DNA of 64,000 nucleotides from Candidatus Cloacimonadales bacterium (GCA_963678315.1 OY782781.1:1792001-1856000), one strand, 5' to 3'; shown: positions 8,569-33,140, numbered from the stretch's first letter. The notes: a model not told the origin generated them from the sequence alone. A program made the numbers and translations.

Positions 8569-8569
8569 A

Positions 8570-10389: not shown

Positions 10390-10392
10390 AAG

Positions 10393-11373: not shown

Positions 11374-11382
11374 GAGGTTTAT

Positions 11383-12387: not shown

Positions 12388-12390
12388 AAT

Positions 12391-13362: not shown

Positions 13363-15089
13363 TGAAGAAGCTACTTATAATATTAGTAATTCTATCTTCT
13401 GTATTTATACTCTCAGGTAATGTTACAGTTGATACAGATATTTCTTCTACTACAATCGGACTTGAAGATGTACTTACCTGGAAAGTTAGTGCTGAATCTG
13501 ATAAACAAGAAGATCTTGATATTAAGATTGATTTTAAAGATTTTGATTTCACAGTCTACGGTCCAAGTGTATCTTCAGGAACATCAATAAGCTTTGTTAA
13601 TGGTCGCTCTACAACAGCTCAATCAAAAGATTATACTTATACTCTCAAACCTAACAAAAAAGGTAAACTTCAAATTCCTTCAATGAAGATTATCGTTAAT
13701 AACAAGACATATTATTCTAAGGAATATGTTATTGATGTTAAAGAAGGCTCATTAGCTAGACGCCATGCACCCAATCGATTTGGTAGATCTTCTATTTTTG
13801 ATGATTTTTTTGGAAGTCCAGAACCCAGAAGAAGAAGTAGGGAAGAGGTATTTGTTGAAGTTGAATTTTCTAATCAGAATGTATACTTCGGAGAAGAAGT
13901 TGAGGTTAAATATATAGTCTATAACAATTTTGAGATGTTTGGTTATAATCTATCTATAGAACCTCATGTTGGTTATGGCTATGTCCTTACTGAAGAAGGT
14001 GAAAAACGATTCCAAAGAGTTAGGAAAGATGGTAAAATATATAATCGTAAAGTTATTGGAACTTATACAATAACTCCTAACATAACAGGTAAGATTAAAG
14101 TTCCAACTGTTAATATCATCAATCAATTCTATGGCTCAACTTATAAGAGCCCAGATAAATATGTTAATGTGAAAGCTCTTCCTGAGAAGAATAAAAGTAT
14201 TGATTTCTCTAACGGTATAGGTAAATTTACTATTAAAGCTAAATTATCACGTCATACGTTGCTAGTTAACAATCAATGTGATTTGATTGTAGAGATAGAA
14301 GGACAGGGTAATCTTGAAGATGTTATTTATCCTGAAGCTCCAGAAATCGAAGGAATTGAGTTTTTAGATCCTACAGGTGAATTAATACAAGATGCAGAAA
14401 ACAATAAATTAGTTTTAAAATATACTATTATACCTTCTGAGGTTGGTAAATTTATAATCCCTCCGATGTCATTCAATTTCTTTGATAAAGATAAGAAAGA
14501 TTATGTAACAGTCTATTCTGGAGAAGAAGTTTTGAAAGTTGCTTCTAATGGAAATTATAAATTAGCAGGAAATTCTAGTGATCAATTTTATACTAGAAAT
14601 AAACCCTTTATGGGGAAAATCAGTCATGAGATTATCTTATTCCATAAATCATGGTATTGGCTTTTATTAGCTATTGCTCTCATCTCTCTTATCGCTTACC
14701 TAGTTTTATACAAAATTTCTAAGCTAAGGAATAGTAACATTTCTTATGTTAGAAGGACTAGTGCAGAAAAGAAACTAAAGGAAGCTATCAAAAATGCTGA
14801 GGAGCAATCTACTTTAAACAGTACAGCCTTCTATAGTATTATTGAGAATAGTTTGCTTAGCTTCATTGCAAAGGTTACAGGTGTATCATTACAGAAATCC
14901 CAAGAAGAAATTATTCAAGCTCTAGAAAATAGCTATATAAAGAAAGTAACAGCAGAAAAGATTAATTACATGCTAAAGCATTGTGAAAGAATAAAATTTC
15001 AACCTAATAGTTCTAATCCTCAAAATCTAGAAAATGATCTAAATAGGTTTAAAGATATTTTTAAGGAGATTGTTAATGCAAGTAAGTAA
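13362..15089 (+). CDS. batD: BatD-family protein
   Basis: Signal peptide, GPSVSSGTSISFVNG, VKALP, GIGKF, GQGNL, C-terminal TM; operon position. Confidence 0.85.
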   Translation: MKKLLIILVILSSVFILSGNVTVDTDISSTTIGLEDVLTWKVSAESDKQEDLDIKIDFKDFDFTVYGPSVSSGTSISFVNGRSTTAQSKDYTYTLKPNKKGKLQIPSMKIIVNNKTYYSKEYVIDVKEGSLARRHAPNRFGRSSIFDDFFGSPEPRRRSREEVFVEVEFSNQNVYFGEEVEVKYIVYNNFEMFGYNLSIEPHVGYGYVLTEEGEKRFQRVRKDGKIYNRKVIGTYTITPNITGKIKVPTVNIINQFYGSTYKSPDKYVNVKALPEKNKSIDFSNGIGKFTIKAKLSRHTLLVNNQCDLIVEIEGQGNLEDVIYPEAPEIEGIEFLDPTGELIQDAENNKLVLKYTIIPSEVGKFIIPPMSFNFFDKDKKDYVTVYSGEEVLKVASNGNYKLAGNSSDQFYTRNKPFMGKISHEIILFHKSWYWLLLAIALISLIAYLVLYKISKLRNSNISYVRRTSAEKKLKEAIKNAEEQSTLNSTAFYSIIENSLLSFIAKVTGVSLQKSQEEIIQALENSYIKKVTAEKINYMLKHCERIKFQPNSSNPQNLENDLNRFKDIFKEIVNASK

Positions 15090-15861
15090 AATGTATAAAT
15101 ATGTGATAATCATTTTGTTTATGATTAATCTATCCTCTTTAATGAGTAGTAACCTAAAAGATACTAACATAACTTTTTCAGCTGGACTGGATTACTTTTC
15201 TAAAGCCCAGTATGAAGAAGCTCTTGATAAGTTTGAGCATTTAGAGAAATTCTCTAATGATCCAAATTTATATTATAATATTGGAACGTGTCATTATCAG
15301 CTAAACAATATTGGCAAGGCAGTCTTGTATTATAAACGTGGACTCTTGCTTGATAGTTCTAATCAAAGAATTCGTGATGCACTTGCAAGCATAGAAGAAC
15401 AAATTATTAACACTGATGATTATTCTCAAAGCTTTTTAAATAGATTGATTATGGATAGCTATAATTATTTAAGTCTTAACAGGTTAGCATGGCTGACTTT
15501 ATTTTGTATATTTCTTTTTGGCTTAATGTTATTTCTTTCATTGTCTAGTAAGTTGAATATCTCAGTTCTTGCAAAAAGATTTTATTTAACCTTCTCAGTA
15601 TTCTTACTCGCTTCAGTAGTTACTATTTCATTCATTAAGTACATTTCATTCAAAAACAATGACCAAATAGTTATTATAGAAGATAAAACAATTATTAAGA
15701 AAGCTGATGAGAATAGGGTTTTGCTTACTCAGAAGAAGTTAAAAGCTGGTACAACTCTTAAATATCTTGGTCAGAAAGATGATAATTCTATTGTTGCACT
15801 TCCTAATGGAGAACGTATACTCATAGATAAAGATTCATACAGTTTTGTTAAAGCAAAGTAG
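15076..15861 (+). CDS. batE: BatE-like TPR/membrane protein
   Basis: LYYNIG...IGKAVLYYKRGL TPR, two TM helices, C-terminal SH3-like segment; AAGGAG before ATG 15076. Confidence 0.8.
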   Translation: MQVSKMYKYVIIILFMINLSSLMSSNLKDTNITFSAGLDYFSKAQYEEALDKFEHLEKFSNDPNLYYNIGTCHYQLNNIGKAVLYYKRGLLLDSSNQRIRDALASIEEQIINTDDYSQSFLNRLIMDSYNYLSLNRLAWLTLFCIFLFGLMLFLSLSSKLNISVLAKRFYLTFSVFLLASVVTISFIKYISFKNNDQIVIIEDKTIIKKADENRVLLTQKKLKAGTTLKYLGQKDDNSIVALPNGERILIDKDSYSFVKAK

Positions 15862-18405: not shown

Positions 18406-19200
18406 TTATTGTATTATTGATTTTAGTGCTTTCTTATAAGTTTCAAATCCAGTTTCAGAATGTTTTAAATCTTTTAAATGTAGAATATGAAGGTTTATAT
18501 TAATCGAAGTTTTCATAGTGAACTTCCCCCAGAATGCATCAAATTTAGAAACAATTCTTGAATCATCAAAATTGCTTGTGCTAGTAAAAATATTCACTTC
18601 CTTGTTTAGCAAAGAGCTATTCCAATCATTAACTTTTGAGAATAAATAATCATCTGCCCACCAAACACTTGGGCTTGCTAATATGAAATCAGTAAACTTA
18701 GTGTCATTGTTGCATTCCATCAGGTAATATAAGCCCAAAAAACCACCTAATGAATGACCAAAAAAGACTCTTTTCTCTACTACAATATCTAAGTGACTTT
18801 CAACTTGTGGAATTAGCTCTTCATTGATAAAGTTAACATATTTATGAGCATATCCATGAAAAGATGTTGGCTTTTGAGGAGGCGCAGTAAAATCCTTTTC
18901 TCTATAATTAATACCTTTATAAGCTATGCTAATCAAGATTAGTGGCTGGTCTGGGTACTTAGCTTTCAAATAAGACCTAAATTGACTTAGAAAAGAGTCT
19001 CCATCGAGAATATACAAGACTATTGCAGGAGAGTCTTTTGCAATAGTCCCATTCTCAAATTTATCAATAACATAACTGTTCCCAGTATATTCCGAATCAA
19101 TATTATACCAAGCATTACAAGTATTTTTATGAATTCTAAAATACCATAGAAGTAGCAAGATAGATAATATAACGAATATTAATGTTAACAGTCTTTTCAT
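18406..19200 (-). CDS. IroE/BesA-like alpha/beta hydrolase (esterase) with N-terminal TM or signal
   Basis: LYILDGD, REKDFT, GHSLGG nucleophile elbow, SPSVWW, terminal H. Confidence 0.8.
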   Translation of the reverse strand: MKRLLTLIFVILSILLLLWYFRIHKNTCNAWYNIDSEYTGNSYVIDKFENGTIAKDSPAIVLYILDGDSFLSQFRSYLKAKYPDQPLILISIAYKGINYREKDFTAPPQKPTSFHGYAHKYVNFINEELIPQVESHLDIVVEKRVFFGHSLGGFLGLYYLMECNNDTKFTDFILASPSVWWADDYLFSKVNDWNSSLLNKEVNIFTSTSNFDDSRIVSKFDAFWGKFTMKTSININLHILHLKDLKHSETGFETYKKALKSIIQ

Positions 19201-19218
19201 AGATTTTACTTATTCTTC

Positions 19219-20292
19219 TTAAATTACTTCACTAATCTTTTCAGTTTTTTTGAAGTGCTCATTTTCTAAATCTTCCATTTCACTTAAAGCTTTATTAAGC
19301 AGTTCAACTCTTTCAGAATAAGGAATAAAAGCTGATTTAAAACCATTGATAATAATGTTTTTAACATCTTTATATGTTAAATTCAACTTCTCAATAACAA
19401 ACATAAATTCATCAGTCATTGTTGTGTTAGAAACAGTTCTATTATCAGTATTTAAAGTTACTCTTAAACCGTAATCCAAGTAGAATCCTAGTGGATGAAC
19501 TTCTAATGATGACACTGCTTTTGTATGGAAGTTACTTTTAAAACATATTTCTAAAGGAATTCTGTGATCATTAACATAGTTTAACAAATCACCATCTTCG
19601 ATTAACCTAGTGCCATGCCCAATTCTATGTGTTCCGCAATAGTGAAGAGCCTGATGTATTGATTCAGGACCGTAGGCTTCACCAGCATGAATAGTGATGT
19701 TTAAATTGTTTTTAAGCGCTAATCTAAAAGCCTCTTCATGATCTTTAGCTGGATAATTATACTCAGCTCCAGCTAAATCAAAGCCAATAACACCCTTGTT
19801 TTTATAAGCAACAGCCAGTTCAGCTAATCTTAGAGAAGTCGCTGGGTTAATATTTCTTATACCACAAATTATCACAGCTGTCTTTATATTATAGTCATGT
19901 TCTGCTCTTCTTAATCCCTTTATTACCGCATCAGAAATTTCTGTTAGCTTCAAGCCATTGTTAGTGTGCAGAATAGGTGAGTAGCGAACTTCTATATATC
20001 TTACATTTTCTTTAGCTGAATCTTCAGCAAGTTCGTAAGCAGCTCTTTCAAGTCCTTCTTGATCTTGAAGAACTAGATTAGCAATGTGGAAACCTTGTAA
20101 ATACTCATCTAAACTCTTACAATCATCTCCACAAGAAACCATTTCCATTAACTTATCTTTATCCATGGTAGGAAGCTTTATATTATTTTTCTTGGCTAAT
20201 TCTAGCATTGTATCGATTCTAACTGAACCATCTAGGTGCACATGTAAATCACTTTTAGGTAATTTTTCAACAAATTCTCTTGTTAATTTCAT
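19219..20292 (-). CDS. add: Adenosine deaminase
   Basis: LPKSDLHVHLDGS, GFDLAGAE, HAGE, RIGHG, NTDN; GGAGGA before ATG 20292. Confidence 0.93.
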   Translation of the reverse strand: MKLTREFVEKLPKSDLHVHLDGSVRIDTMLELAKKNNIKLPTMDKDKLMEMVSCGDDCKSLDEYLQGFHIANLVLQDQEGLERAAYELAEDSAKENVRYIEVRYSPILHTNNGLKLTEISDAVIKGLRRAEHDYNIKTAVIICGIRNINPATSLRLAELAVAYKNKGVIGFDLAGAEYNYPAKDHEEAFRLALKNNLNITIHAGEAYGPESIHQALHYCGTHRIGHGTRLIEDGDLLNYVNDHRIPLEICFKSNFHTKAVSSLEVHPLGFYLDYGLRVTLNTDNRTVSNTTMTDEFMFVIEKLNLTYKDVKNIIINGFKSAFIPYSERVELLNKALSEMEDLENEHFKKTEKISEVI

Positions 20293-20703
20293 TTTTCCTC
20301 CATTAATTTTATATAATATGAGTGACAAGTGCTTTATTGTCAAAGTTTATCTAGATTTTTTTTTATTTTCTTGTTCTTGTGTGTATCCATTGATAGCTCC
20401 AAAATATTGATTTTAATGAGCCAAAACACGTTATCAGACTCACATAATAAATACAATTATTTAGAAATGAAATATTATAATAAGTATAAACATCTGGATA
20501 AAACTTTTCTTGACACATCTATTTAAGCACTCTTTCATTGGCTTATCAATAAATGATTGTATTCTAAATAAAGAGGTTGTTATGATAAGGTCTATATTTT
20601 TACTTCAACTACAATTTCTACAACTATGCCAAATTTTAACTATAACTATTTCATTACATATCAATAATAATCTAAAAGTTACAATACCTACTAAGGAGCC
20701 CCC

Positions 20704-22320
20704 ATGTATAAATTTTTAATTACTATGCTATTTTTTATAAGCTTATTATGCTGTTTTGCTGAAAATGAAATGCCTATAATGTATACCTTTCAAGGCCCTT
20801 GGGAAGGATCAAAATATGGTAAATTAATGACCTCGTTAGATTTCAATGCTGATGGTATTGATGACTTACTTATCTTTTCTAATGGAAATCCAGAAAACTA
20901 TCATAATGAAGTATATATCCACTATGGAGGAGAAACTTTTTCACCAGTTGCAGATGATACACTAAAAGCTATTTGCACTGGACAATTTTATTTAGGGCTT
21001 TTTGCTACAGGAGATGTTAATGGTGATGGTTATGATGATTTTGCAACTTTTGGAAGAACACCAAATATCGACAATGCCTACACTTATAACTTTTACTACG
21101 GTGGCCCAAATCCTGATTTACTTGTAGATCACCAATGTAGCTACTATGTCGGACAATCAGCAGGATATGACTGGTCTTATCCTAAAATGATCTCATGCCT
21201 TGGAGATGTTAATGGTGATGGCTGTGACGAACAAGGTATCATCTTGGAAAGAGGGTATAACGAATCATCATTTGCTTTACTAACAGGTGGAAGCTTTGAA
21301 ATGTTAGAAGTATATCCTAGTGAATATAATTTAGGCTCTCTAGATATCGACCCACTAGGAGATTTAAACAATGATGGCTATGATGATTTTTCTATAGGTT
21401 ACTGGATATATCCAGAATATAGTTATACCTATGTCTATTGGGGCAATCCTGATTTTGATTTTAATCAACATGATAGTATTGCTATCTACAATCATTCTTC
21501 AATTTCTTATCATTTTTCAGGAAGTCTTGGAGTTGGAGACTTCAACAATGATGGCTATGATGATTTTATCTATCCTCGTCAAGACAATTTAAGTAACCAT
21601 GGTTATGGCCTTAAGTTAATGACTAATGATTTACATCAAGCCCAAGGTTTTCCACTACAAAGACCTTCTTACCACCCTTACTATATAAATAATGAAAGCT
21701 ACAATGGACGCTACATCAAACATGGAGATTTTAATGGAGATGGTTATAGTGATATAGTTGGAGCAAATCCTTCTGCATATTTAAATGATGGTATCGCTGG
21801 AGTTTGGTTAGGAGGTCAAGTCCCTAATGGCACTTGTGATTTAACTTTAAATGAGGTTAGTCAGCAAGCTGACCAATTTGGATATTCTTTAGCAGTAGGC
21901 GATTTTGATAATGATGGTTATGATGATATTGCTATCTCAGAGCCCTTCATGGTTTCAGGATGGGATCAGTTTGGCTTTGTAACTATATTTAGTGGATCCG
22001 ACCAACTAACTGATACAACAGTGGCTAATGACGATACAGAAGAAGTCATAAAAGATTCATTAAAACTAAATTTATATCCAAACCCTGTAAAATCTAATAA
22101 CTTACAACTTAATTACGAAATTAAAGGAGACATCCCTAAGAATTGTTTAACCTCAAAAATGGATATATACAATTTAAAGGGACAGAAAGTACAAAGTAAT
22201 AATATCAATATCGTTAGCAAATCTGGAACTGTAGAACTAAACTCTATAGCTTCAGGAATGTACTTAGCTAAAATTAAAATCAATAATGAGATTATCTCAG
22301 CTAAATTCATTGTTAAATAA
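20704..22320 (+). CDS. Secreted FG-GAP repeat protein with T9SS type-A-like CTD, array copy 1 (V1 allele A)
   Basis: Signal peptide, seven D-x-[ND]-x-D-G-x-x-[DE] motifs, CTD LYPNPV...YNLKGQKV...ASGMY...KFIVK. Confidence 0.88.
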   Translation: MYKFLITMLFFISLLCCFAENEMPIMYTFQGPWEGSKYGKLMTSLDFNADGIDDLLIFSNGNPENYHNEVYIHYGGETFSPVADDTLKAICTGQFYLGLFATGDVNGDGYDDFATFGRTPNIDNAYTYNFYYGGPNPDLLVDHQCSYYVGQSAGYDWSYPKMISCLGDVNGDGCDEQGIILERGYNESSFALLTGGSFEMLEVYPSEYNLGSLDIDPLGDLNNDGYDDFSIGYWIYPEYSYTYVYWGNPDFDFNQHDSIAIYNHSSISYHFSGSLGVGDFNNDGYDDFIYPRQDNLSNHGYGLKLMTNDLHQAQGFPLQRPSYHPYYINNESYNGRYIKHGDFNGDGYSDIVGANPSAYLNDGIAGVWLGGQVPNGTCDLTLNEVSQQADQFGYSLAVGDFDNDGYDDIAISEPFMVSGWDQFGFVTIFSGSDQLTDTTVANDDTEEVIKDSLKLNLYPNPVKSNNLQLNYEIKGDIPKNCLTSKMDIYNLKGQKVQSNNINIVSKSGTVELNSIASGMYLAKIKINNEIISAKFIVK

Positions 22321-22338
22321 CTTATAGAAGGAGCCTCC

Positions 22339-23955
22339 ATGTATAAATTTTTAATTACTATGCTATTTTTTATAAGCTTATTAAGCTGTTTTGCTGAAAA
22401 TGAAATGCCTATAATGTATACCTTTCAAGGCCCTTGGGAAGGATCAAAATATGGTAAATTAATGACCTCGTTAGATTTCAATGCTGATGGTATTGATGAC
22501 TTACTTATCTTTTCTAATGGAAATCCAGAAAACTATCATAATGAAGTATATATCCACTATGGAGGAGAAACTTTTTCACCAGTTGCAGATGATACACTAA
22601 AAGCTATTTGCACTGGACAATTTTATTTAGGGCTTTTTGCTACAGGAGATGTTAATGGTGATGGTTATGATGATTTTGCAACTTTTGGAAGAACACCAAA
22701 TATCGATAATGCCTACACTTATAGCTTTTACTACGGTGGCCCAAATCCTGATTTACTTGTAGACCACCAATGTAGCTACTATGTCGGACAATCAGCAGGA
22801 TATGACTGGTCTTATCCTAAAATGATCTCATGCCTTGGAGATGTTAATGGTGATGGCTGTGACGAACAAGGACTTATCCTTCAAAGAATAGGACTAGAAG
22901 CATCAATAGGACTTTTAGTAGGAGGAAGCTTTGAAATTTTAGAAGTTATCCCAGCTGGATTAATTTTTTCTTGTATAGATATCGATCCACTAGGAGATTT
23001 AAACAATGATGGCTATGATGATTTTTCTATAGGTTACTGGATTTATCCAGAATATAGTTATACCTATGTCTATTGGGGCAATCCTGATTTTGATTTTAAT
23101 CAACATGATAGTATTGCTATCTACAATCATTCTTCAATTTCTTATCATTTTTCAGGAAGTCTTGGAATTGGAGACTTCAACAATGATGGTTATGATGATT
23201 TTATCTATCCTCGTCAAGACAATTTTTCTAATAATGGTTATGGCCTTAAGTTAATGACTAATGATTTACATCAAGCCCAAGGTTTTCCACTACAAAGACC
23301 TTCTTACCATCCTTGTTATATCTACGATGATGGCTACAATGGGCATTACATCAAACATGGAGATTTTAATGGAGATGGTTATAGTGATATTGTTGGAGCA
23401 AATCCTTCTGCATATTTAAATGATGGTATCGCTGGAGTTTGGTTAGGAGGTCAAGTCCCTAATGGCACTTGTGATTTAACTTTAAATGAGGTTAGTCAGC
23501 AAGCTGACCAATTTGGATATTCTTTAGCAGTAGGTGATTTTGATAATGATGGTTATGATGATATTGCTATCTCAGAACCCTTCATGGTTTCAGGATGGGA
23601 TCAGTTTGGCTTTGTAACTATATTTAGTGGATCCGACCAACTAACTGATACAACAGTGGCTAATGACGATACAGAAGAAGTCATAAAAGATTCATTAAAA
23701 TTAAATTTATATCCAAACCCTGTAAAATCTAATAACTTACAACTTAATTTCGAAATTAAAGGAGACATCCCTAAGAATTGTATAACCTCAAAAATGGATA
23801 TATACAATTTAAAGGGACAGAAAGTACAAAGTAATAATATCAATATCGTTAGCAAATCTGGAACTGTAGAACTAGACTCTATAGCTTCAGGAATGTACTT
23901 AGCTAAAATTAAAATCAATAATGAGATTATCTCAGCTAAATTCATTGTTAAATAA
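22339..23955 (+). CDS. Secreted FG-GAP repeat protein, copy 2 (V1 allele A)
   Basis: Same scaffold as copy 1; different V2/V3 blocks. Confidence 0.88.
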   Translation: MYKFLITMLFFISLLSCFAENEMPIMYTFQGPWEGSKYGKLMTSLDFNADGIDDLLIFSNGNPENYHNEVYIHYGGETFSPVADDTLKAICTGQFYLGLFATGDVNGDGYDDFATFGRTPNIDNAYTYSFYYGGPNPDLLVDHQCSYYVGQSAGYDWSYPKMISCLGDVNGDGCDEQGLILQRIGLEASIGLLVGGSFEILEVIPAGLIFSCIDIDPLGDLNNDGYDDFSIGYWIYPEYSYTYVYWGNPDFDFNQHDSIAIYNHSSISYHFSGSLGIGDFNNDGYDDFIYPRQDNFSNNGYGLKLMTNDLHQAQGFPLQRPSYHPCYIYDDGYNGHYIKHGDFNGDGYSDIVGANPSAYLNDGIAGVWLGGQVPNGTCDLTLNEVSQQADQFGYSLAVGDFDNDGYDDIAISEPFMVSGWDQFGFVTIFSGSDQLTDTTVANDDTEEVIKDSLKLNLYPNPVKSNNLQLNFEIKGDIPKNCITSKMDIYNLKGQKVQSNNINIVSKSGTVELDSIASGMYLAKIKINNEIISAKFIVK

Positions 23956-23974
23956 CTTTTAAGAAGGAGCCCCC

Positions 23975-25591
23975 ATGTATAAATTTTTAATTACTATGCT
24001 ACTTTTTATAAGTTTATTAAGCTGTTTTGCTGAAAATGAAATGCCTATAATGTATACCTTTCAAGGCCCTTGGGAAGGATCTTACTATGGTGAGTTTGTT
24101 ATATCATTAGACTTCAATGCAGATAACATCGACGATTTGTTAATATATAATGCTGGAGAAGAAAATCTGTACAATGGGGTTATTGATATCCATTTTGGAG
24201 GAAACGAATTTGGAATAGTCCCAGATTTACAGTTAGAGGGTACTTTTTTAGGGGAGCATGGAAAAGGATTATATGCTGTGAATGATGTTAACGGTGATGG
24301 TTATGAAGATTTCGCGACACTGAGTCCATCTGCAAATATCGACAATGCCTACACCTACAACTTTTACTACGGTGGCCCAAATCCTGATTTACTTGTAGAC
24401 CAGCAATGTAGCTACTATGTAGGACAATCAGCAGGATATGACTGGTCTTATCCTAAAATGATCTCATGCCTTGGAGATGTTAATGGTGATGGCTGTGACG
24501 AACAAGGACTTATCCTTCAAAGAATAGGACCAGAAGCATCAATAGGACTTTTAGTAGGAGGAAGCTTTGAAATTTTAGAAGTTATCCCAGCTGGATTAAT
24601 TTTTTCTTGTATAGATATCGATCCACTAGGAGATTTAAACAATGATGGCTATGATGATTTTTCTATAGGTTACTGGATTTATCCAGAATATAGTTATACC
24701 TATGTCTATTGGGGCAATCCTGATTTTGATTTTAATCAACATGATAGTATTGCTATCTACAATCATTCTTCAATTTCTTATCATTTTTCAGGAAGTCTTG
24801 GAATTGGAGACTTCAACAATGATGGCTATGATGATTTTATCTATCCTCGTCAAGACAATTTTTCTAATAATGGTTATGGCCTTAAGTTAATGACTAATGA
24901 TTTACATCAAGCCCAAGGTTTTCCACTACAAAGACCTTCTTACCATCCTTGTTATATCTACGATGATGGCTACAATGGGCATTACATCAAACATGGAGAT
25001 TTTAATGGAGATGGTTATAGTGATATTGTTGGAGCAAATCCTTCTGCATATTTAAATGATGGTATCGCTGGAGTTTGGTTAGGAGGTCAGGTCCCTAATG
25101 GCACTTGTGATTTAACTTTAAATGAGGTTAGTCAGCAAGCTGACCAATTTGGATATTCTTTAGCAGTAGGCGATTTTGATAATGATGGTTATGATGATAT
25201 TGCAATCTCAGAACCCTTTATGGTTTCAGGATGGGATCAGTTTGGCTTTGTAACTATATTTAGTGGATCCGACCAACTAACTGATACAACAGTGGCTAAT
25301 GACGATACAGAAGAAGTCATAAAAGATTCATTAAAATTAAATTTATATCCAAACCCTGTAAAATCTAATAACTTACAACTTAATTTCGAAATTAAAGGAG
25401 ACATCCCTAAGAATTGTTTAACCTCAAAAATGGATATATACAATTTAAAGGGACAGAAAGTACAAAGTAATGATATCAATATCGTTAGCAAATCTGGGAC
25501 TGTAGAACTAAACTCTATAGCTTCAGGAATGTACTTAGCTAAAATTAAAATCAATGATGAGATTATCTCAGCTAAGTTCATTGTTAAATAA
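23975..25591 (+). CDS. Secreted FG-GAP repeat protein, copy 3 (V1 allele B)
   Basis: Same scaffold; V1 begins YYGEFVI. Confidence 0.88.
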   Translation: MYKFLITMLLFISLLSCFAENEMPIMYTFQGPWEGSYYGEFVISLDFNADNIDDLLIYNAGEENLYNGVIDIHFGGNEFGIVPDLQLEGTFLGEHGKGLYAVNDVNGDGYEDFATLSPSANIDNAYTYNFYYGGPNPDLLVDQQCSYYVGQSAGYDWSYPKMISCLGDVNGDGCDEQGLILQRIGPEASIGLLVGGSFEILEVIPAGLIFSCIDIDPLGDLNNDGYDDFSIGYWIYPEYSYTYVYWGNPDFDFNQHDSIAIYNHSSISYHFSGSLGIGDFNNDGYDDFIYPRQDNFSNNGYGLKLMTNDLHQAQGFPLQRPSYHPCYIYDDGYNGHYIKHGDFNGDGYSDIVGANPSAYLNDGIAGVWLGGQVPNGTCDLTLNEVSQQADQFGYSLAVGDFDNDGYDDIAISEPFMVSGWDQFGFVTIFSGSDQLTDTTVANDDTEEVIKDSLKLNLYPNPVKSNNLQLNFEIKGDIPKNCLTSKMDIYNLKGQKVQSNDINIVSKSGTVELNSIASGMYLAKIKINDEIISAKFIVK

Positions 25592-25609
25592 CTTATAGAA
25601 GGAGCCCCC

Positions 25610-27223
25610 ATGTATAAATTTTTAATTACTATGCTATTTTTTATAAGCTTATTAAGCTGTTTTGCTGAAAATGAAATGCCTATAATGTATACCTTTCAAG
25701 GCCCTTGGGAAGGATCAGCCTATGGTAGAGATGTAATATCACTTGACTTTAACGCTGATGGAATTGATGACTTTATGACAACAGCTCAAGCAGAAGTAGA
25801 TAATCTGTATAACGTATATATCCACTATGGCGGAGAAAACTTCTGTCCTGTTCCAAATGATACTCTTCAAGTAGGTTATGATAATATTTATAGAATAGGT
25901 TTGTTTGCTACAGGAGATGTTAATGGTGATGGTTATGATGACTTTGCAACTTTTGGTAGATACCCTAATCAAGAAATAGAATACACCTACAACTTTTACT
26001 ACGGTGGCCCCAATCCTGATTTACTTGTAGATCACCAATGTAGCTACTATGTCGGACAATCAGACGGATATGACTGGTCTTATCCTAAAATGATCTCATG
26101 CCTTGGAGATGTTAATGGTGATGGCTGTGACGAACAAGCTATCATCTTGGAAAGAGGGTATAACATAGCATCCATTGCTTTACTTAGAGGAGGAAGCTTT
26201 GAAATTTTAGAAGTTATCCCAGCTGGATTAATTTTTTCTTGTATAGATATCGATCCACTAGGAGATTTAAACAATGATGGCTATGATGATTTTTCTATAG
26301 GTTACTGGATTTATCCAGAATATAGTTATACCTATGTCTATTGGGGCAATCCTGATTTTGATTTTAATCAACATGATAGTATTGCTATCTACAATCATTC
26401 TTCAATTTCTTATCATTTTTCAGGAAGTCTTGGAATTGGAGACTTCAACAATGATGGTTATGATGATTTTATCTATCCTCGTCAAGACAATTTTTCTAAT
26501 AATGGTTATGGCCTTAAGTTAATGACTAATGATTTACATCAAGCCCAAGGTTTTCCACTACAAAGACCTTCTTACCATCCTTGTTATATCTACGATGATG
26601 GCTACAATGGGCATTACATCAAACATGGAGATTTTAATGGAGATGGTTATAGTGATATTGTTGGAGCAAATCCTTCTGCATATTTAAATGATGGTATCGC
26701 TGGAGTTTGGTTAGGAGGTCAAGTCCCTAATGGCACTTGTGATTTAACTTTAAATGCGATTAGTCAAGCCCCAGACCAATTTGGATATTCTTTAGCAGTA
26801 GGTGATTTTGATAATGATGGTTATGATGATATTGCTATCTCAGAGCCCTTCATGGTTTCAGGATGGGATCAGTTTGGCTTTGTAACTATATTTAGTGGAT
26901 CCGACCAACTAACTGATACAACAGTGGCTAATGACGATACAGAAGAAGTCATAAAAGATTCATTAAAATTAAATTTATATCCAAACCCTGTAAAATCTAA
27001 TAACTTACAACTTCATTACGAAATTAAAGGAGACATCCCTAAGAATTGTTTAACCTCAAAAATGGATATATACAATTTAAAGGGACAGAAAGTACAAAGT
27101 AATAATATCAATATCGTTAGCAAATCTGGAACTGTAGAACTAGACTCTATAGCTTCAGGAATGTACTTAGCTAAAATTAAAATCAATAATGAGATTATCT
27201 CAGCTAAATTCATTGTTAAATAA
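25610..27223 (+). CDS. Secreted FG-GAP repeat protein, copy 4 (V1 allele C)
   Basis: Same scaffold; V1 begins AYGRDVI; 537 aa. Confidence 0.88.
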   Translation: MYKFLITMLFFISLLSCFAENEMPIMYTFQGPWEGSAYGRDVISLDFNADGIDDFMTTAQAEVDNLYNVYIHYGGENFCPVPNDTLQVGYDNIYRIGLFATGDVNGDGYDDFATFGRYPNQEIEYTYNFYYGGPNPDLLVDHQCSYYVGQSDGYDWSYPKMISCLGDVNGDGCDEQAIILERGYNIASIALLRGGSFEILEVIPAGLIFSCIDIDPLGDLNNDGYDDFSIGYWIYPEYSYTYVYWGNPDFDFNQHDSIAIYNHSSISYHFSGSLGIGDFNNDGYDDFIYPRQDNFSNNGYGLKLMTNDLHQAQGFPLQRPSYHPCYIYDDGYNGHYIKHGDFNGDGYSDIVGANPSAYLNDGIAGVWLGGQVPNGTCDLTLNAISQAPDQFGYSLAVGDFDNDGYDDIAISEPFMVSGWDQFGFVTIFSGSDQLTDTTVANDDTEEVIKDSLKLNLYPNPVKSNNLQLHYEIKGDIPKNCLTSKMDIYNLKGQKVQSNNINIVSKSGTVELDSIASGMYLAKIKINNEIISAKFIVK

Positions 27224-27242
27224 CTTTTAAGAAGGAGCCCCC

Positions 27243-28859
27243 ATGTATAAATTTTTAATTACTATGCTACTTTTTATAAGTTTATTAAGCTGTTTTGCTG
27301 AAAATGAAATGCCTATAATGTATACCTTTCAAGGCCCTTGGGAAGGATCTTACTATGGTGAGTTTGTTATATCATTAGACTTCAATGCAGATAACATCGA
27401 CGATTTGTTAATATATAATGCTGGAGAAGAAAATCTGTACAATGGGGTTATTGATATCCATTTTGGAGGAAACGAATTTGGAATAGTCCCAGATTTACAG
27501 TTAGAGGGTACTTTTTTAGGGGAGCATGGAAAAGGATTATATGCTGTGAATGATGTTAACGGTGATGGTTATGAAGATTTCGCGACACTGAGTCCATCTG
27601 CAAATATCGACAATGCCTACACCTACAACTTTTACTACGGTGGCCCAAATCCTGATTTACTTGTAGACCAGCAATGTAGCTACTATGTAGGACAATCAGC
27701 AGGATATGACTGGTCTTATCCTAAAATGATCTCATGCCTTGGAGATGTTAATGGTGATGGCTGTGACGAACAAGGACTTATCCTTCAAAGAATAGGACCA
27801 GAAGCATCAATAGGACTTTTAGTAGGAGGAAGCTTTGAAATTTTAGAAGTTATCCCAGCTGGATTAATTTTTTCTTGTATAGATATCGATCCACTAGGAG
27901 ATTTAAACAATGATGGCTATGATGATTTTTCTATAGGTTACTGGATTTATCCAGAATATAGTTATACCTATGTCTATTGGGGCAATCCTGATTTTGATTT
28001 TAATCAACATGATAGTATTGCTATCTACAATCATTCTTCAATTTCTTATCATTTTTCAGGAAGTCTTGGAATTGGAGACTTCAACAATGATGGCTATGAT
28101 GATTTTATCTATCCTCGTCAAGACAATTTTTCTAATAATGGTTATGGCCTTAAGTTAATGACTAATGATTTACATCAAGCCCAAGGTTTTCCACTACAAA
28201 GACCTTCTTACCATCCTTGTTATATCTACGATGATGGCTACAATGGGCATTACATCAAACATGGAGATTTTAATGGAGATGGTTATAGTGATATTGTTGG
28301 AGCAAATCCTTCTGCATATTTAAATGATGGTATCGCTGGAGTTTGGTTAGGAGGTCAGGTCCCTAATGGCACTTGTGATTTAACTTTAAATGAGGTTAGT
28401 CAGCAAGCTGACCAATTTGGATATTCTTTAGCAGTAGGCGATTTTGATAATGATGGTTATGATGATATTGCAATCTCAGAACCCTTTATGGTTTCAGGAT
28501 GGGATCAGTTTGGCTTTGTAACTATATTTAGTGGATCCGACCAACTAACTGATACAAAAGTGGCTAATGACGATACAGAAGAAGTCATAAAAGATTCATT
28601 AAAATTAAATTTATATCCAAACCCTGTAAAATCTAATAACTTACAACTTAATTTCGAAATTAAAGGAGACATCCCTAAGAATTGTTTAACCTCAAAAATG
28701 GATATATACAATTTAAAGGGACAGAAAGTACAAAGTAATGATATCAATATCGTTAGCAAATCTGGGACTGTAGAACTAAACTCTATAGCTTCAGGAATGT
28801 ACTTAGCTAAAATTAAAATCAATGATGAGATTATCTCAGCTAAGTTCATTGTTAAATAA
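27243..28859 (+). CDS. Secreted FG-GAP repeat protein, copy 5 (V1 allele B)
   Basis: Translation differs from copy 3 at one visible residue (DTT vs DTK). Confidence 0.85.
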   Translation: MYKFLITMLLFISLLSCFAENEMPIMYTFQGPWEGSYYGEFVISLDFNADNIDDLLIYNAGEENLYNGVIDIHFGGNEFGIVPDLQLEGTFLGEHGKGLYAVNDVNGDGYEDFATLSPSANIDNAYTYNFYYGGPNPDLLVDQQCSYYVGQSAGYDWSYPKMISCLGDVNGDGCDEQGLILQRIGPEASIGLLVGGSFEILEVIPAGLIFSCIDIDPLGDLNNDGYDDFSIGYWIYPEYSYTYVYWGNPDFDFNQHDSIAIYNHSSISYHFSGSLGIGDFNNDGYDDFIYPRQDNFSNNGYGLKLMTNDLHQAQGFPLQRPSYHPCYIYDDGYNGHYIKHGDFNGDGYSDIVGANPSAYLNDGIAGVWLGGQVPNGTCDLTLNEVSQQADQFGYSLAVGDFDNDGYDDIAISEPFMVSGWDQFGFVTIFSGSDQLTDTKVANDDTEEVIKDSLKLNLYPNPVKSNNLQLNFEIKGDIPKNCLTSKMDIYNLKGQKVQSNDINIVSKSGTVELNSIASGMYLAKIKINDEIISAKFIVK

Positions 28860-28877
28860 CTTATAGAAGGAGCCCCC

Positions 28878-30491
28878 ATGTATAAATTTTTAATTACTAT
28901 GCTATTTTTTATAAGCTTATTAAGCTGTTTTGCTGAAAATGAAATGCCTATAATGTATACCTTTCAAGGCCCTTGGGAAGGATCAGCCTATGGTAGAGAT
29001 GTAATATCACTTGACTTTAACGCTGATGGAATTGATGACTTTATGACAACAGCTCAAGCAGAAGTAGATAATCTGTATAACGTATATATCCACTATGGCG
29101 GAGAAAACTTCTGTCCTGTTCCAAATGATACTCTTCAAGTAGGTTATGATAATATTTATAGAATAGGTTTGTTTGCTACAGGAGATGTTAATGGTGATGG
29201 TTATGATGACTTTGCAACTTTTGGTAGATACCCTAATCAAGAAATAGAATACACCTACAACTTTTACTACGGTGGCCCCAATCCTGATTTACTTGTAGAT
29301 CACCAATGTAGCTACTATGTCGGACAATCAGACGGATATGACTGGTCTTATCCTAAAATGATCTCATGCCTTGGAGATGTTAATGGTGATGGCTGTGACG
29401 AACAAGCTATCATCTTGGAAAGAGGGTATAACATAGCATCCATTGCTTTACTTAGAGGAGGAAGCTTTGAAATTTTAGAAGTGATACCTAATGAAAACAA
29501 TTTAGGTTCTATAGATATCGATCCACTAGGAGATTTAAACAATGATGGCTATGATGATTTTTCTATAGGTTACTGGATATATCCAGAATATAGTTATACC
29601 TATGTCTATTGGGGCAATCCAGATTTTGATTTTAATCAACATGATAGTATTGCTATCTACAATCATTCTTCAATTTCTTATCATTTTTCAGGAAGTCTTG
29701 GAATTGGAGACTTCAACAATGATGGCTATGATGATTTTATCTATCCTCGTCAAGACAATTTTTCTAATAATGGTTATGGCCTTAAGTTAATGACTAATGA
29801 TTTACATGAAGCCCAAGGTTTTCCACTACAAAGACCTTCTTACCATCCTTGTTATATCTACGATGATGGCTACAATGGGCATTACATCAAACATGGAGAT
29901 TTTAATGGAGATGGTTATAGTGATATTGTTGGAGCAAATCCTTCTGCATATTTAAATGATGGTATCGCTGGAGTTTGGTTAGGAGGTCAAGTCCCTAATG
30001 GCACTTGTGATTTAACTTTAAATGCGATTAGTCAAGCCCCAGACCAATTTGGATATTCTTTAGCAGTAGGTGATTTTGATAATGATGGTTATGATGATAT
30101 TGCAATCTCAGAACCCTTTATGGTTTCAGGATGGGATCAGTTTGGCTTTGTAACTATATTTAGTGGATCCGACCAACTAACTGATACAACAGTGGCTAAT
30201 GACGATACAGAAGAAGTCATAAAAGATTCATTAAAATTAAATTTATATCCAAACCCTGTAAAATCTAATAACTTACAACTTAATTTCGAAATTAAAGGAG
30301 ACATCCCTAAGAATTGTATAACCTCAAAAATGGATATATACAATTTAAAGGGACAGAAAGTACAAAGTAATGATATCAATATCGTTCGCAAATCTGGAAC
30401 TGTAGAACTAGACTCTATAGCTTCAGGAATGTACTTAGCTAAAATTAAAATCAATGATGAGATTATCTCAGCTAAGTTTATTGTTAAATGA
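28878..30491 (+). CDS. Secreted FG-GAP repeat protein, copy 6 (V1 allele C)
   Basis: Same V1 as copy 4 but V2b NENNLGS; ends in TGA rather than TAA. Confidence 0.88.
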   Translation: MYKFLITMLFFISLLSCFAENEMPIMYTFQGPWEGSAYGRDVISLDFNADGIDDFMTTAQAEVDNLYNVYIHYGGENFCPVPNDTLQVGYDNIYRIGLFATGDVNGDGYDDFATFGRYPNQEIEYTYNFYYGGPNPDLLVDHQCSYYVGQSDGYDWSYPKMISCLGDVNGDGCDEQAIILERGYNIASIALLRGGSFEILEVIPNENNLGSIDIDPLGDLNNDGYDDFSIGYWIYPEYSYTYVYWGNPDFDFNQHDSIAIYNHSSISYHFSGSLGIGDFNNDGYDDFIYPRQDNFSNNGYGLKLMTNDLHEAQGFPLQRPSYHPCYIYDDGYNGHYIKHGDFNGDGYSDIVGANPSAYLNDGIAGVWLGGQVPNGTCDLTLNAISQAPDQFGYSLAVGDFDNDGYDDIAISEPFMVSGWDQFGFVTIFSGSDQLTDTTVANDDTEEVIKDSLKLNLYPNPVKSNNLQLNFEIKGDIPKNCITSKMDIYNLKGQKVQSNDINIVRKSGTVELDSIASGMYLAKIKINDEIISAKFIVK

Positions 30492-30520
30492 CGGTAACAC
30501 AGTTGATTATATTCCATCTT

Positions 30521-30613
30521 GAGAGATGTTTTTCCAAAGGTCTCTACATCATTAATAGCCCCCTTGAAAAATTGGCTTTTTTTCAATGAGACCAGTAAGG
30601 GAGGAGTTAGGAG
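30521..30613. repeat. Small cluster of palindromic elements after the array
   Basis: Imperfect AGAGA...TCTCTAC hairpin (30521-30547), TTGAAAAA-ttggctt-TTTTTCAA palindrome (30564-30586) shared with 63195-63217, and GGAGTTAGGAG. Confidence 0.55.
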
Positions 30614-30773
30614 ATGTACTGCTAGTAAAATGGAGTTAGCAACATCAGAGCAGCAAGCTACTAACAATAGCTAAAAACTCATTCAATGACTGATAAAATA
30701 ATGTTTGACAGATTTTGAAAAGGCTAGTTATTATACAAAGTTGTAATTAAGAGATCTGTAATAGGAGGAAAAT

Positions 30774-31580
30774 ATGAAGAAATCAAGTTACCAAGAACAT
30801 ATAGAAAAAAAGATATTGAAACGTCTAGATAATAAAGCACTGGAAGTAACAAAATATATATTTGAAAACGAAGAGATACAAACACTTCAGGATTACTGCA
30901 ATAATGTATCAATTAAACGCTTAGGATTCAATGATCATGGACCAGTTCACATGAGGAAGGCTACATTGAATGCAATAGTTATGTTTAGGCTTCTTAAAAA
31001 GAATGGGATTGAATTTAATCTTGAAAAAGAGTGTTGGGGTAATGAAGAAGATAGTTTAATTGCTGTCATACTTGCTTCATTGTTCCATGATTTCGGGATG
31101 TCAATTGCTAGAGAGAACCATGAACTTATGAGTGTAGAAATTGCTAGACCATATATCCAAAAAATACTAGAGAAATTCTATGAGGAAAGTGATTTAAAGA
31201 AAAAAGTAGCTATTATGTCAATAGCAACTGAAGGTATTTTAGGACACATGGGTACACAGAAGATACATTCCTTAGAGGCTGGACTAGTCTTAATTGGTGA
31301 CGGAACGGATATGGAGAGGGGGAGAGCTAGAATACCAATATTGTTAGCTTCAGCACCTAAACCTGGTGATATTCATAGAACATCTGCAGATGCTATCGAG
31401 AGAGTTCGATTTGAAGAAGGCAAGGAAAAACCTATCGAGATAAAAGTAACTATGAACTCTTCAGTTGGTTTCTTCCAAATTGAAGAAGTACTATTCCCAA
31501 AAATAGCTATTAGTCCGATTAAGAAATACATTGAATTATATGCTGGTGTTGAAGGCGAAGAGTATCTTCAATATTTATAG
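30774..31580 (+). CDS. HD-superfamily phosphohydrolase (MJ1020-like)
   Basis: RLGFNDHGPVH, FHDFGMS, H..., GDGTDM..GRARIP, DIH. Confidence 0.85.
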   Translation: MKKSSYQEHIEKKILKRLDNKALEVTKYIFENEEIQTLQDYCNNVSIKRLGFNDHGPVHMRKATLNAIVMFRLLKKNGIEFNLEKECWGNEEDSLIAVILASLFHDFGMSIARENHELMSVEIARPYIQKILEKFYEESDLKKKVAIMSIATEGILGHMGTQKIHSLEAGLVLIGDGTDMERGRARIPILLASAPKPGDIHRTSADAIERVRFEEGKEKPIEIKVTMNSSVGFFQIEEVLFPKIAISPIKKYIELYAGVEGEEYLQYL

Positions 31581-31595
31581 AGTAGTATAGGAAAG

Positions 31596-33140
31596 ATGAA
31601 AAACTTACTTAGAATAAGACCGATTAAAAAAAGATTCATAATATCTTTGATAATTTCAATTCTTGTTATTGTAGGGATTATTCTATATTTTAGATTTTTT
31701 GACAATACTATTAGTTTTTCCTCACTATGGACAGCATTAACTGTCCTTACTACTTCAGCAATTATATGGGTTTTGATAAATGAACGGAAAAACTATGTTC
31801 ACACATTTGCCTGGATTCTAGTATTAATATTTCTACCACTGGTAGGTATATTTTTCTACTTTGCAGTTGGTAGAAACTTTCGTAAAAATAAACTTTTCTC
31901 TAATAAAGAAATAGCTGATAGACTAGAATTCAAGGCAATCAATAAGTTTCTAGATGTTAACTATCAAGACTACAATTTCATGATTGATAGTCAAAGTAGT
32001 AAAATCATGAAACTGTTATATAACAACAGTAAAGCTTTTCTAAGTCATAATAATAACATAGAATTGTTTCCTGATGGTATTAAGCTGTTTGATAAAATGT
32101 TACTTGATATTAAACAGGCAAAGCACCACATACATTTGGAGTATTTTGGTTTTGCAAATGATGAGACAGGTAAGAGATTCAGAGATGCCCTGATTAAAAA
32201 AGCACAAGAAGGTGTGGAAGTTAGAATCATTGTTGATGATGTAGGTTCATGGAAATTCAGATTTATGTTAGGCAAAATCTTTAAATCGTATGGAGTTAAA
32301 GTATATTACTTCAACAAGGTTAGAATTCCTTTCATGAATAGTAGATTTAACTATAGAAATCATCGTAAAATTATTGTTATAGATGGTAAGATAAGCTACT
32401 TAGGAGGCTTAAATATTGGGAATAAATATGCTTCCAAAGATAAGTATTTTGGTTATTGGAGAGACACGCACATGAGAATTCAAGGAGGGGCTACTCTTGG
32501 CTTGCAAACTGTCTTCTTGACTGACCTATATTTTCTTTCTAAAGAATATCTTTTTAAGGAAGAGTACTTTGATAATAGCTATACTAGTGGTGATATCTCT
32601 ATGCAAGTTGTAACATCAGGTCCAGATTCTGATTGGGAAAGCATTATGCAGTCATATTTTATAGCTATTACAGGTGCAACCCGAAATATTTATATTACTT
32701 CCCCTTATCTTATACTTAATGAAAGCCTGAATATTGCTCTTATTACTGCAGCCCTAAGTGGGATTGATGTTCGCATTATTGTTCCAGGAAAGCCTGATCA
32801 TCTAATTGTATTTTGGGGGTCTAGGTCATATTATCAAGACTTGATAGAAGCAGGTGTGAAGATTTATGAGTATAGCAAAGGATTTATTCATGCAAAGGTT
32901 CTGTCTGTTGATAGCAAACTTGTATCTATTGGTACTGCAAACATGGATATAAGATCGTTTAATCACAACTTTGAGATAAATGGCATAATCTATGATTCAA
33001 TTGTAAGTAGAGAAATTGATAATCAATTCTTCAAAGATATCGAAGATTCCAGGCAAATTACTATTGAAGATATCAATAATATATCAAGGTTCACTAAAGT
33101 AAAGTTAGGTATTTCTAGGTTATTCTCACCTCTACTGTAA
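31596..33140 (+). CDS. cls: Cardiolipin synthase
   Basis: N-terminal TMs/PLDc_N; two HKD motifs (NHRKIIVIDG, HAKVLSVD...GTANMDIRSF). Confidence 0.93.
   Translation: MKNLLRIRPIKKRFIISLIISILVIVGIILYFRFFDNTISFSSLWTALTVLTTSAIIWVLINERKNYVHTFAWILVLIFLPLVGIFFYFAVGRNFRKNKLFSNKEIADRLEFKAINKFLDVNYQDYNFMIDSQSSKIMKLLYNNSKAFLSHNNNIELFPDGIKLFDKMLLDIKQAKHHIHLEYFGFANDETGKRFRDALIKKAQEGVEVRIIVDDVGSWKFRFMLGKIFKSYGVKVYYFNKVRIPFMNSRFNYRNHRKIIVIDGKISYLGGLNIGNKYASKDKYFGYWRDTHMRIQGGATLGLQTVFLTDLYFLSKEYLFKEEYFDNSYTSGDISMQVVTSGPDSDWESIMQSYFIAITGATRNIYITSPYLILNESLNIALITAALSGIDVRIIVPGKPDHLIVFWGSRSYYQDLIEAGVKIYEYSKGFIHAKVLSVDSKLVSIGTANMDIRSFNHNFEINGIIYDSIVSREIDNQFFKDIEDSRQITIEDINNISRFTKVKLGISRLFSPLL

Follow-up and report, generated by a model that had tools for sequence, protein, structure and literature searches.

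Mosaic alleles in a six-gene array of predicted type IX-secreted propeller proteins of a Candidatus Cloacimonadales bacterium

In the Borrelia vls, Neisseria pilE/pilS and Anaplasma msp2 systems, one expression site is served by truncated donors that lack promoters; the Neisseria opa and Helicobacter bab/sab families are made of complete, expressible copies, dispersed and phase-variable, whose backbones are homogenised by conversion and whose hypervariable segments are reassorted. Here we analyse a tandem array of six genes, encoding predicted secreted proteins that resemble the propeller of integrin alpha, in a 64,000-nucleotide (nt) stretch of a Candidatus Cloacimonadales bacterium (genome C1:1792001-1856000). 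This whole stretch is called the window, and its coordinates are used unless stated otherwise. In the array, a nearly uniform gene backbone is interrupted by a few blocks carrying distinct alleles, whose distribution over the copies follows no single tree. Like opa and bab/sab, the array holds complete copies with homogenised backbones and distinct, reassorted variable segments; unlike them, it is a compact tandem in which no phase-variation repeats were seen, and it belongs to a lineage of free-living or syntrophic anaerobes, not to a host-adapted pathogen. With vls, pilE/pilS and msp2 it shares segmental conversion between similar sequences and conserved flanks round variable cassettes, but its six copies are all complete and its alleles are stable between genomes.

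The closest described case is the mosaic of surface proteins exported via a type IX secretion system (T9SS) in Porphyromonas gingivalis, a mosaic that involves the adhesin domains of Kgp, RgpA and HagA, together with other proteins, and is attributed to domain rearrangement, allelic exchange and gene conversion (PMC5266723). The likeness lies in T9SS cargo with a C-terminal sorting domain, in few conserved variants per domain forming a mosaic unrelated to strain phylogeny, and in an attribution to homologous recombination or gene conversion with no dedicated machinery. The P. gingivalis genes differ in being dispersed, in varying mostly between strains, in encoding adhesin and protease domains and in belonging to a host-associated pathogen, whereas the Cloacimonadales array consists of six complete head-to-tail paralogs within one genome, built on a beta-propeller scaffold, with conversion visible inside the array itself.

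As to the fold, bacterial integrin-type seven-bladed FG-GAP/Cage beta-propellers have been reported to carry a calcium motif in every blade (PMC3192720). The array proteins are like these propellers, and like integrin alpha, in their seven FG-GAP repeats, in the calcium motif of each blade and in the structural match; they differ from integrins in that a beta subunit, a transmembrane helix and an I domain are all missing. The same report assumed the bacterial propellers to be cytoplasmic, whereas the array proteins carry a putative export signal and a T9SS sorting domain. Our literature search found no paper joining Cloacimonadota or Cloacimonetes with FG-GAP, and the papers it found joining Cloacimonadota with T9SS do not treat this propeller family. 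Next to nothing is known of the cell surface of the Cloacimonadota, a phylum of abundant anaerobes that remain uncultured. As a natural case of concerted evolution from which some blocks have escaped, the array is a clean one and, if the blocks set binding specificity, it would supply existing chimeras with which to map what each propeller loop recognises; it gives no evidence for a new mechanism of diversification.

Mosaic alleles and recombination among the six copies

We favour, with a probability of about 0.8, the reading that the array is a real mosaic paralog family produced by duplication and gene conversion, with no dedicated diversification machine. Six intact open reading frames (ORFs) of 537-538 amino acids (aa) lie head to tail on the plus strand from 20704 to 30491, where a preceding inspection of the DNA by itself (hereafter the sequence-only reading) had placed them. 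The spacers between the genes measure 18-19 nt, every one containing GAAGGAGCC and carrying GGAG, and a Shine-Dalgarno-like motif stands directly upstream of copy 1 (Table 1). Four variable regions, V1 to V4, had been proposed, and every allele assigned to them agrees with the protein alignment. V1 is present as allele A in copies 1 and 2, as B in copies 3 and 5 and as C in copies 4 and 6. As had also been claimed, these alleles are mosaic themselves: at the DNA level A equals C at gene nt 299-358 and equals B at nt 360-375. V2a exists in three types, copy 2 being distinguished from copies 3/5 by L versus P, and it is separated by the conserved GGAAGCTTTGAAAT from V2b, which reads SEYNLGS in copy 1, AGLIFSC in copies 2-5 and NENNLGS in copy 6. 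Both strings put forward as conserved anchors of the blocks occur in all six copies, with 0 chance matches expected.

In a codon-consistent DNA alignment of the six copies, 260 of the 1617 columns are variable and 214 are parsimony-informative. The copies group as 12 / 35 / 46 at gene nt 108-384, as 146 / 235 at nt 534-580, as 16 / 2345 at nt 609-635, as copy 1 against the rest at nt 888-1053 and as 1235 / 46 at nt 1151-1167, while scattered sites at the 3' end support 124/356, 135/246, 14/2356 and 26/1345. Incompatibility is found in 2688 of 22791 pairs of informative sites. Recombination was assessed with our own PHI-type permutation test and with the Hudson-Kaplan minimum (Rmin): the PHI value of the six copies was matched by none of 2000 permutations with neighbourhoods of 5, 10 and 20 sites, and Rmin equals 8, so that at least 8 recombination events are required. 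Since the blocks follow no single tree, segmental recombination is required and one bifurcating tree is contradicted, which bears out the sequence-only reading.

The copies are not equally distant from one another. A single one of 1617 nt separates copies 3 and 5, and 30 nt separate copies 4 and 6, against 76 nt between copies 2 and 1; the spacers also match in pairs, 2-3 being identical to 4-5 and 3-4 to 5-6. Given this near-identity of 3/5 and of 4/6, with pairwise identical spacers, copies 3-4 and 5-6 are a very recent tandem duplication of a two-gene unit of 3268 nt, the two units differing at 31 nt in total. The array thus comprises really four gene types plus later conversions, and the six copies are not independent: of the six-member repertoire suggested earlier the intact copies stand, but two of its three allele pairs are the product of the recent duplication. 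The differences between copies 4 and 6 cluster in two tracts. At every such difference within nt 609-705 copy 4 carries the letters of copies 2/3/5, and copy 6 keeps NENNLGS; within nt 1230-1616 copy 6 goes with copies 3/5 and copy 4 with copy 1. The first tract is most simply read as a short stretch of copy 4 that was converted by a neighbouring copy once the duplication had taken place, the donor allele being present in the array. Over the period in which copies 3/5 acquired one point difference, at least two conversion tracts were thus formed. The duplication serves in this way as an internal clock, with two copies 1 nt apart and yet at least two conversion tracts since.

The ages of blocks and backbone contrast sharply, according to Nei-Gojobori estimates of synonymous divergence (dS) and of its ratio with the nonsynonymous divergence (dN/dS). 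For V1, dS is 0.98-1.7 and dN/dS 0.26-0.34; for V2, 0.36-0.87 and 0.41-0.67 (0.97 for the small tract between copies 4 and 6); for V3, 0.30 and about 0.26-0.29; and for V4, 1.0 and about 0.35. In the conserved segments dS is 0-0.13, and dN/dS is not applicable. As purifying selection on the protein cannot equalise synonymous sites, the backbone must have been homogenised by conversion. A single-copy paralog, P0005, lies 64 kb away (genome 1746658-1748307, minus strand) and is 52% identical to copy 1. The V1 alleles share 46-61% aa identity with each other and 41-51% with this paralog, whereas the parts outside the blocks show 94-98% likeness among the array copies and 53-57% identity to it. 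In V1, array copies compared among themselves give the same dS and dN as when compared with the paralog, against which dS is saturated everywhere; for this reason, the V1 alleles are about as old as the split from the paralog. The variable blocks are old alleles and not fresh mutations.

A search of 5.8 billion protein clusters returned three representatives above 52% identity. One, P0003, is copy 5; the others, P0001 and P0002 (94% and 89% identical), come from another contig, of 3,016,564 bp, in a second, closely related genome, the cluster of P0001 holding 7 member sequences. P0002 combines V1-B, Asp153, the 4/6 type of V2a (one Met for Ile), V2b NENNLGS, the V3 of copy 1 and V4 EVSQQA, a combination that occurs in none of the six window copies, and P0001 carries V1-A together with the 3/5 form of V2a. 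The search for new block combinations in relatives, which had been proposed as a test, was hence positive at the protein level. Since the block aa sequences are identical between the two genomes, save that one V2a residue of P0002, and stand there in other combinations, the alleles are stable and their linkage differs. The idea of a system that generates diversity fared worse: the blocks are old, with saturated synonymous sites, and, because they are aa-identical between two genomes, nothing new is being made. The counterpart of the single-copy paralog in the second genome, P0004, is 81% identical to P0005 overall. The two differ mainly within their first 250 residues and are nearly identical over the last 300; the V1 segment has 56% and V2 45% identity, versus 91% over aa 130-177 and aa 218-430. 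The divergence of this pair falls in the blade 1-3 regions, which are those that vary in the array.

Predicted fold, export and position of the variable residues

The claim that the array encodes integrin-alpha-like proteins is backed by family scores, by a structural model and by structural matches. In a Pfam scan of copies 1, 3 and 4 (three of the six), FG-GAP (PF01839) scored 108.4, 92.1 and 103.8 bits against a cut-off of 22.1, and FG-GAP_3 (PF13517) scored 76, 49.9 and 68.5 bits against a cut-off of 26.9. Seven Dx[DN]xDGxxD motifs (aa 46-54, 104-112, 168-176, 220-228, 279-287, 342-350 and 400-408) are invariant in the six copies, and their Asp residues are invariant across 99 family members. 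An AlphaFold2 model of copy 1, built on these 99 members (pLDDT 88.6, pTM 0.77), shows seven four-stranded blades (the propeller is probably closed by strand 25-30 at the N-terminus), a poorly ordered linker at aa 440-448 and a C-terminal beta-sandwich at residues 454-537. The calcium loop, predicted by the motif, sits between strands 1 and 2 of each blade. When the model was compared with the PDB using Foldseek, the best matches were integrin alpha headpieces (6djp_A, 4irz_A and 8xfg_A), with E 4.6e-15 to 7.1e-15, probability 1.00 and TM 0.44-0.51 over the whole chain, the structural alignments having 11-15% sequence identity.

The C-terminal part matches PF18962 (Por_Secre_tail) at residues 457-537, with 36.9-37.5 bits against a cut-off of 27 in the three copies scanned, and TIGR04183 of NCBIfam on copy 1, with 42.4 bits against a cut-off of 23; in a scan of the genome the sorting domain was above cut-off in all six array copies. 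The N-terminus, judged by inspection only, has a hydrophobic stretch at aa 4-18, a putative Sec signal peptide, which ends in CFA ahead of ENEM, with a helix modelled at residues 2-16, and homologues carry A-x-A-like sites at the matching position. Of the T9SS machinery the PorU sortase was searched for, and NF033707 was found at genome 1013127-1016348 with 573.6 bits against a cut-off of 420. The window genome, of 2.99 Mb, has 127 sorting-domain matches, which puts its genes for T9SS cargo at 127 or more. In conclusion, sequence and model concur in assigning to the array proteins an FG-GAP integrin-type seven-bladed propeller followed by a T9SS type A sorting domain. They are predicted to be secreted, as had been suggested, and more exactly as T9SS type A cargo in a genome that has PorU; most likely, they would be cell-surface or released proteins with a putative binding function.

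On this model, V1 covers blade 1, the 4-1 loop and blade 2 from strand 1 to the 2-3 loop; V2a corresponds to strands 2-3 of blade 3 with their hairpin, and V2b runs from blade 3 (strand 4) into blade 4 (strand 1); V3 comprises the hairpin between strands 2 and 3 of blade 5 together with the long 4-1 loop ahead of blade 6; and V4 is the 4-1 loop ahead of blade 7. Strands and loops were assigned from the DSSP string of the model, and the residues varying among the six copies were counted. Variable residues make up 17/40 of the 2-3 loops and 24/72 of the 4-1 loops, as compared with 2/57 in the 1-2 (calcium) loops, 9/57 in the 3-4 loops, 21-24% of the strands and 7/85 of the sorting domain. In the modelled structure, the variable residues therefore favour the 2-3 and 4-1 loops, and the calcium 1-2 loops hardly vary. 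Integrin propellers bind their ligands on the face made up of the 4-1 and 2-3 loops, with the calcium hairpins on the opposite face. The pattern fits a binding face under diversifying pressure and, equally well, loose loops that have diverged too far for conversion.

Proposed mechanism and rival explanations

On the reading that we prefer, a paralog family shaped by duplication and gene conversion, the six co-oriented genes would probably be co-transcribed, and ordinary homologous recombination among the repeats would generate the mosaic. Unequal crossing-over would add copies by tandem duplication, most recently giving genes 5-6 from genes 3-4, and gene conversion would hold most of each gene near-identical. 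A few stretches, namely blade 1-2, a portion of blade 3 and three segments of 4-1 or 2-3 loops, would retain old, deeply diverged alleles, and conversion tracts with ends in the identical DNA between blocks would occasionally re-link them. Selection, rather than divergence alone blocking conversion, may keep the blocks different. Recombination here mostly homogenises the DNA outside the blocks and occasionally re-links existing blocks.

Several points weigh against this reading. The copy number and order of the genes rest on the assembly, and the short-read contigs break at the array, none spanning it. The re-linking between genomes is seen at the protein level only, where intragenomic conversion and exchange between strains both fit. 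dN/dS is below 1 in every block, which gives no positive sign of selection favouring diversity; computing it block by block had been recommended, and the values obtained do not support selection for diversity. Across the family, the positions that vary in the array are the least conserved, with a mean entropy of 2.69 versus 1.95 bits in 95 other members (Mann-Whitney p = 9e-9, and p = 1e-6 when the 37 variable and 263 invariant positions beyond V1 are compared), and on this account relaxed constraint explains the location of the blocks about as well as selection for diversity does. Finally, the 2-3 and 4-1 loops would be placed on a ligand-binding face by analogy with the known topology of integrins rather than from coordinates.

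An assembly or polishing artefact, in which a smaller or more uniform repeat was expanded, or chimerised from strain variants of the metagenome, would be favoured by the difficulty of assembling 9.8 kb of repeats that are 85-99.9% identical, by the near-identity of copies 3 and 5 and by the behaviour of the Logan short-read contigs in the four public runs, from three studies, that we compared; these break at the array edges in all four (in X1, for instance, record 1 stops at 20722 and record 8 begins at 30449). In these runs depths are not copy numbers and uncovered parts are uninformative. However, the window genome is a single contig of 2,988,751 bp, the six frames are intact with clean block borders at the codon level, and pieces of V1-A, V1-B and V1-C recur with 0 other letters in both X1 and X2, which come from different studies, while X6 and X7, from the third study, have V1-B at 0 and V1-A at 3 other letters. 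Moreover, an independent contig of 3.02 Mb encodes the same alleles and related closed genomes hold comparable arrays. The alleles, then, exist elsewhere, although copy number and order are not confirmed by contigs that stop at the array edges, and we regard an artefact as highly improbable. Less credit still can be given to a dedicated device, be it a diversity-generating retroelement, a shufflon or invertase, or an expression site fed by silent cassettes, even though the genome has four reverse-transcriptase loci and the block borders are sharp beside the conserved anchors. All of those loci (at 0.98, 1.08, 2.51 and 2.88 Mb) lie at least 0.7 Mb away from the array, which is at 1.81-1.82 Mb. 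Within the window, no recombinase, transposase or reverse transcriptase was found among the 45 other ORFs, as the sequence-only reading had remarked for recombinases and reverse transcriptases. A diversity-generating retroelement was rejected in view of the lack of a reverse transcriptase in the window and of any template-like match to a block elsewhere in the genome, and adenine-targeted mutagenesis is excluded because the allele differences span all six base-pair classes and all codon positions. A shufflon or invertase was dismissed on the absence of a recombinase from those ORFs, on the direct orientation of all the copies and on the upstream inverted repeats, which are weak, AT-rich and of only 10-17 nt. 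As for silent cassettes, none, and no partial block copies, were found elsewhere in the genome, the longest off-array match to any block being 37 nt, within a calcium motif; all six copies are full length with start codon, Shine-Dalgarno sequence, putative signal sequence and sorting domain, so that the contrast already drawn with such systems holds. The stability of the alleles between genomes speaks against all such devices.

It is possible, but in our judgement rather doubtful, that the array is a selected repertoire, in which balanced, ancient cassettes of the ligand face are reassorted within and between genomes and several binding specificities are displayed at once, for the recognition of partner cells or polymers or for escape from phages that use the propeller as receptor. 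The preference of the variable residues for the 2-3 and 4-1 loops, the presence of the same alleles in two genomes with different linkage, the variation of P0005/P0004 in the same regions at another locus, the age of the V1 alleles, comparable to that of the paralog split, and the recurrence of arrays across the order would all be expected on this explanation; but dN/dS stays below 1 throughout, the variable positions are simply the least conserved ones of the family, two genomes are too few for balancing selection, and divergence alone, by blocking homologous conversion, would leave the same islands. Only tentatively, therefore, can the blade 1-3 blocks be viewed as polymorphisms balanced across loci and exchanged among tandem copies and strains, including the paralog 64 kb away. 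If this were true, one operon would display combinatorial ligand-binding faces on an otherwise identical, calcium-stabilised propeller, and the Cloacimonadales arrays would represent a receptor repertoire of an uncultured phylum, possibly serving the recognition of partners or substrates or the escape from phages.

In run X2, a contig of 849 nt lying on 21352-22200 has the letters of copy 1 at 12 of 13 sites of the V3 core and the other allele at nt 705, 829, 888-895 and 1053, with changes in V4; it could represent another combination of blocks or a chimera among the short-read contigs, and it was not counted. A joint in X1 from 24009 to 30695 was ignored, as its shorter side has only 20 letters. 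The four reverse-transcriptase loci form two pairs (genome 2505986-2506615 with 1079753-1080382, and 983457-984099 with 2875199-2875841), which are near-identical as judged by their nearly equal scores, the second pair being split by a break in the frame. Group II introns or retroelements are possible identities for these loci, which have no relation to the array.

Related arrays and surroundings of the locus

With copy 1 as query, matches were obtained in 36 of 41 related genomes, and in at least 10 of the 41 (G000, G001, G002, G005, G007, G013, G021, G025, G031 and G036) adjacent copies of the family lie on the same strand, as read off the match positions. A scan of contigs from other genomes, leaving out the very near ones, gave best segments with 24-41% identity and one stretch of 29 residues with 76%. 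Seven relative arrays from six genomes were examined at the DNA level; their copy numbers are 4 (3 adjacent and 1 nearby), 3, 9, 6, 4, 2 and 2. On those with four or more copies, the PHI value was reached in 0 of 300 shuffles in each case (4/4). Nucleotide diversity is uneven along the gene, the signal-peptide region being the most uniform in six of the seven arrays, and in several of them the last blade and the sorting domain are almost as uniform. The arrays of 9 and 6 members both belong to G013 (L015, C1:2534000-2553999, and L016, 3689000-3702500), and some of their copies show N-terminal extensions of about 30 aa (MLTCYLKETATVSEIKLP...), which are probably upstream in-frame starts and not real extensions. 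A metagenome contig retrieved with a 20-nt anchor, the only one so found, was set aside as unrelated: its 10 ORFs of at least 150 aa are, as judged from their translations, without the conserved N- or C-terminal sequence of the array proteins, no family search having been run on them.

The window genome contains a second six-gene T9SS array, spanning the contig start (C1:2972703-2988751, then 1-1524), with members of 743-756 aa and one of 473 aa. Identity between their bodies is about 30%, apart from a pair that reaches 95% and the 473-aa member, 91% identical to both of that pair, and the last 15 residues are the same in all six, which suggests homogenisation of the sorting domain only.

The coordinates of the features described here are collected in Table 1.

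Table 1. Features of the array in window coordinates; positions within genes are given for copy 1
Feature	Position	Strand	Description
Upstream intergenic region	20344..20703	+	AT-rich; Shine-Dalgarno-like AAGGAGCCCCC immediately before copy 1
Copy 1	20704..22320	+	538 aa; V1-A; private V2a, V2b and V3 alleles; V4 EVSQQA
Copy 2	22339..23955	+	538 aa; V1-A combined with the V2/V3 alleles of copies 3/5
Copy 3	23975..25591	+	538 aa; V1-B
Copy 4	25610..27223	+	537 aa; V1-C; V2a type 4/6; V2b AGLIFSC; V4 AISQAP
Copy 5	27243..28859	+	538 aa; recent duplicate of copy 3
Copy 6	28878..30491	+	537 aa; duplicate of copy 4; V2b NENNLGS retained; 3' end resembles copies 3/5
V1, copy 1	20811..21087	+	gene nt 108-384, aa 37-129; offsets within the gene are equal in the other copies
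V2a and V2b, copy 1	21237..21351	+	gene nt 534-648, aa 178-216
V3, copy 1	21591..21756	+	gene nt 888-1053, aa 296-351; copy 1 versus all others
V4, copy 1	21854..21870	+	gene nt 1151-1167, aa 384-389; copies 4/6 versus the rest
T9SS type A C-terminal sorting domain, copy 1	22069..22317	+	aa 456-538; present in all six copies
Duplication unit one	23956..27223	+	spacer, copy 3, spacer, copy 4
Duplication unit two	27224..30491	+	spacer, copy 5, spacer, copy 6
Antisense frames	23601-23945, 25237-25611, 28505-28879, 30137-30667	-	repeated along with the repeated DNA

The upstream intergenic region would presumably hold the sole promoter of the array. In a scan of 20300-30900, 45 promoter-like sites were found against 57.1 expected, which is no enrichment, and no terminator-like site, hence none within the array; across 19000-32000 there was no match to an Rfam family. 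Tandem Repeats Finder, limited to periods of up to 500, detected no repeat. Imperfect inverted repeats of 14-17 nt around some 86 nt occupy 20450-20571, upstream of copy 1; as an example, 20450-20463 pairs with 20550-20563 (14 nt, 93%). An invertible promoter formed by these repeats was considered and discarded, as they are too weak, AT-rich DNA gives such repeats and there is no invertase nearby. The antisense open frames, of 114-176 aa, that overlie the 3' ends in copies 2, 3, 5 and 6 are probably spurious and not genes.

The array is flanked by an adenosine deaminase gene at 19219-20343 on one side and by a gene at 30774 on the other. Further upstream, at 7588-15861 on the plus strand, lies a Bat-type 'aerotolerance' operon comprising a MoxR-type AAA ATPase, a DUF58 protein, two VWA (BatA/BatB-like) proteins, TPR proteins and BatD. 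At 38558-42415, also on the plus strand, the window encodes a protein of 1285 aa whose sole Pfam match is a C-terminal T9SS sorting domain, another large cargo of this secretion system.

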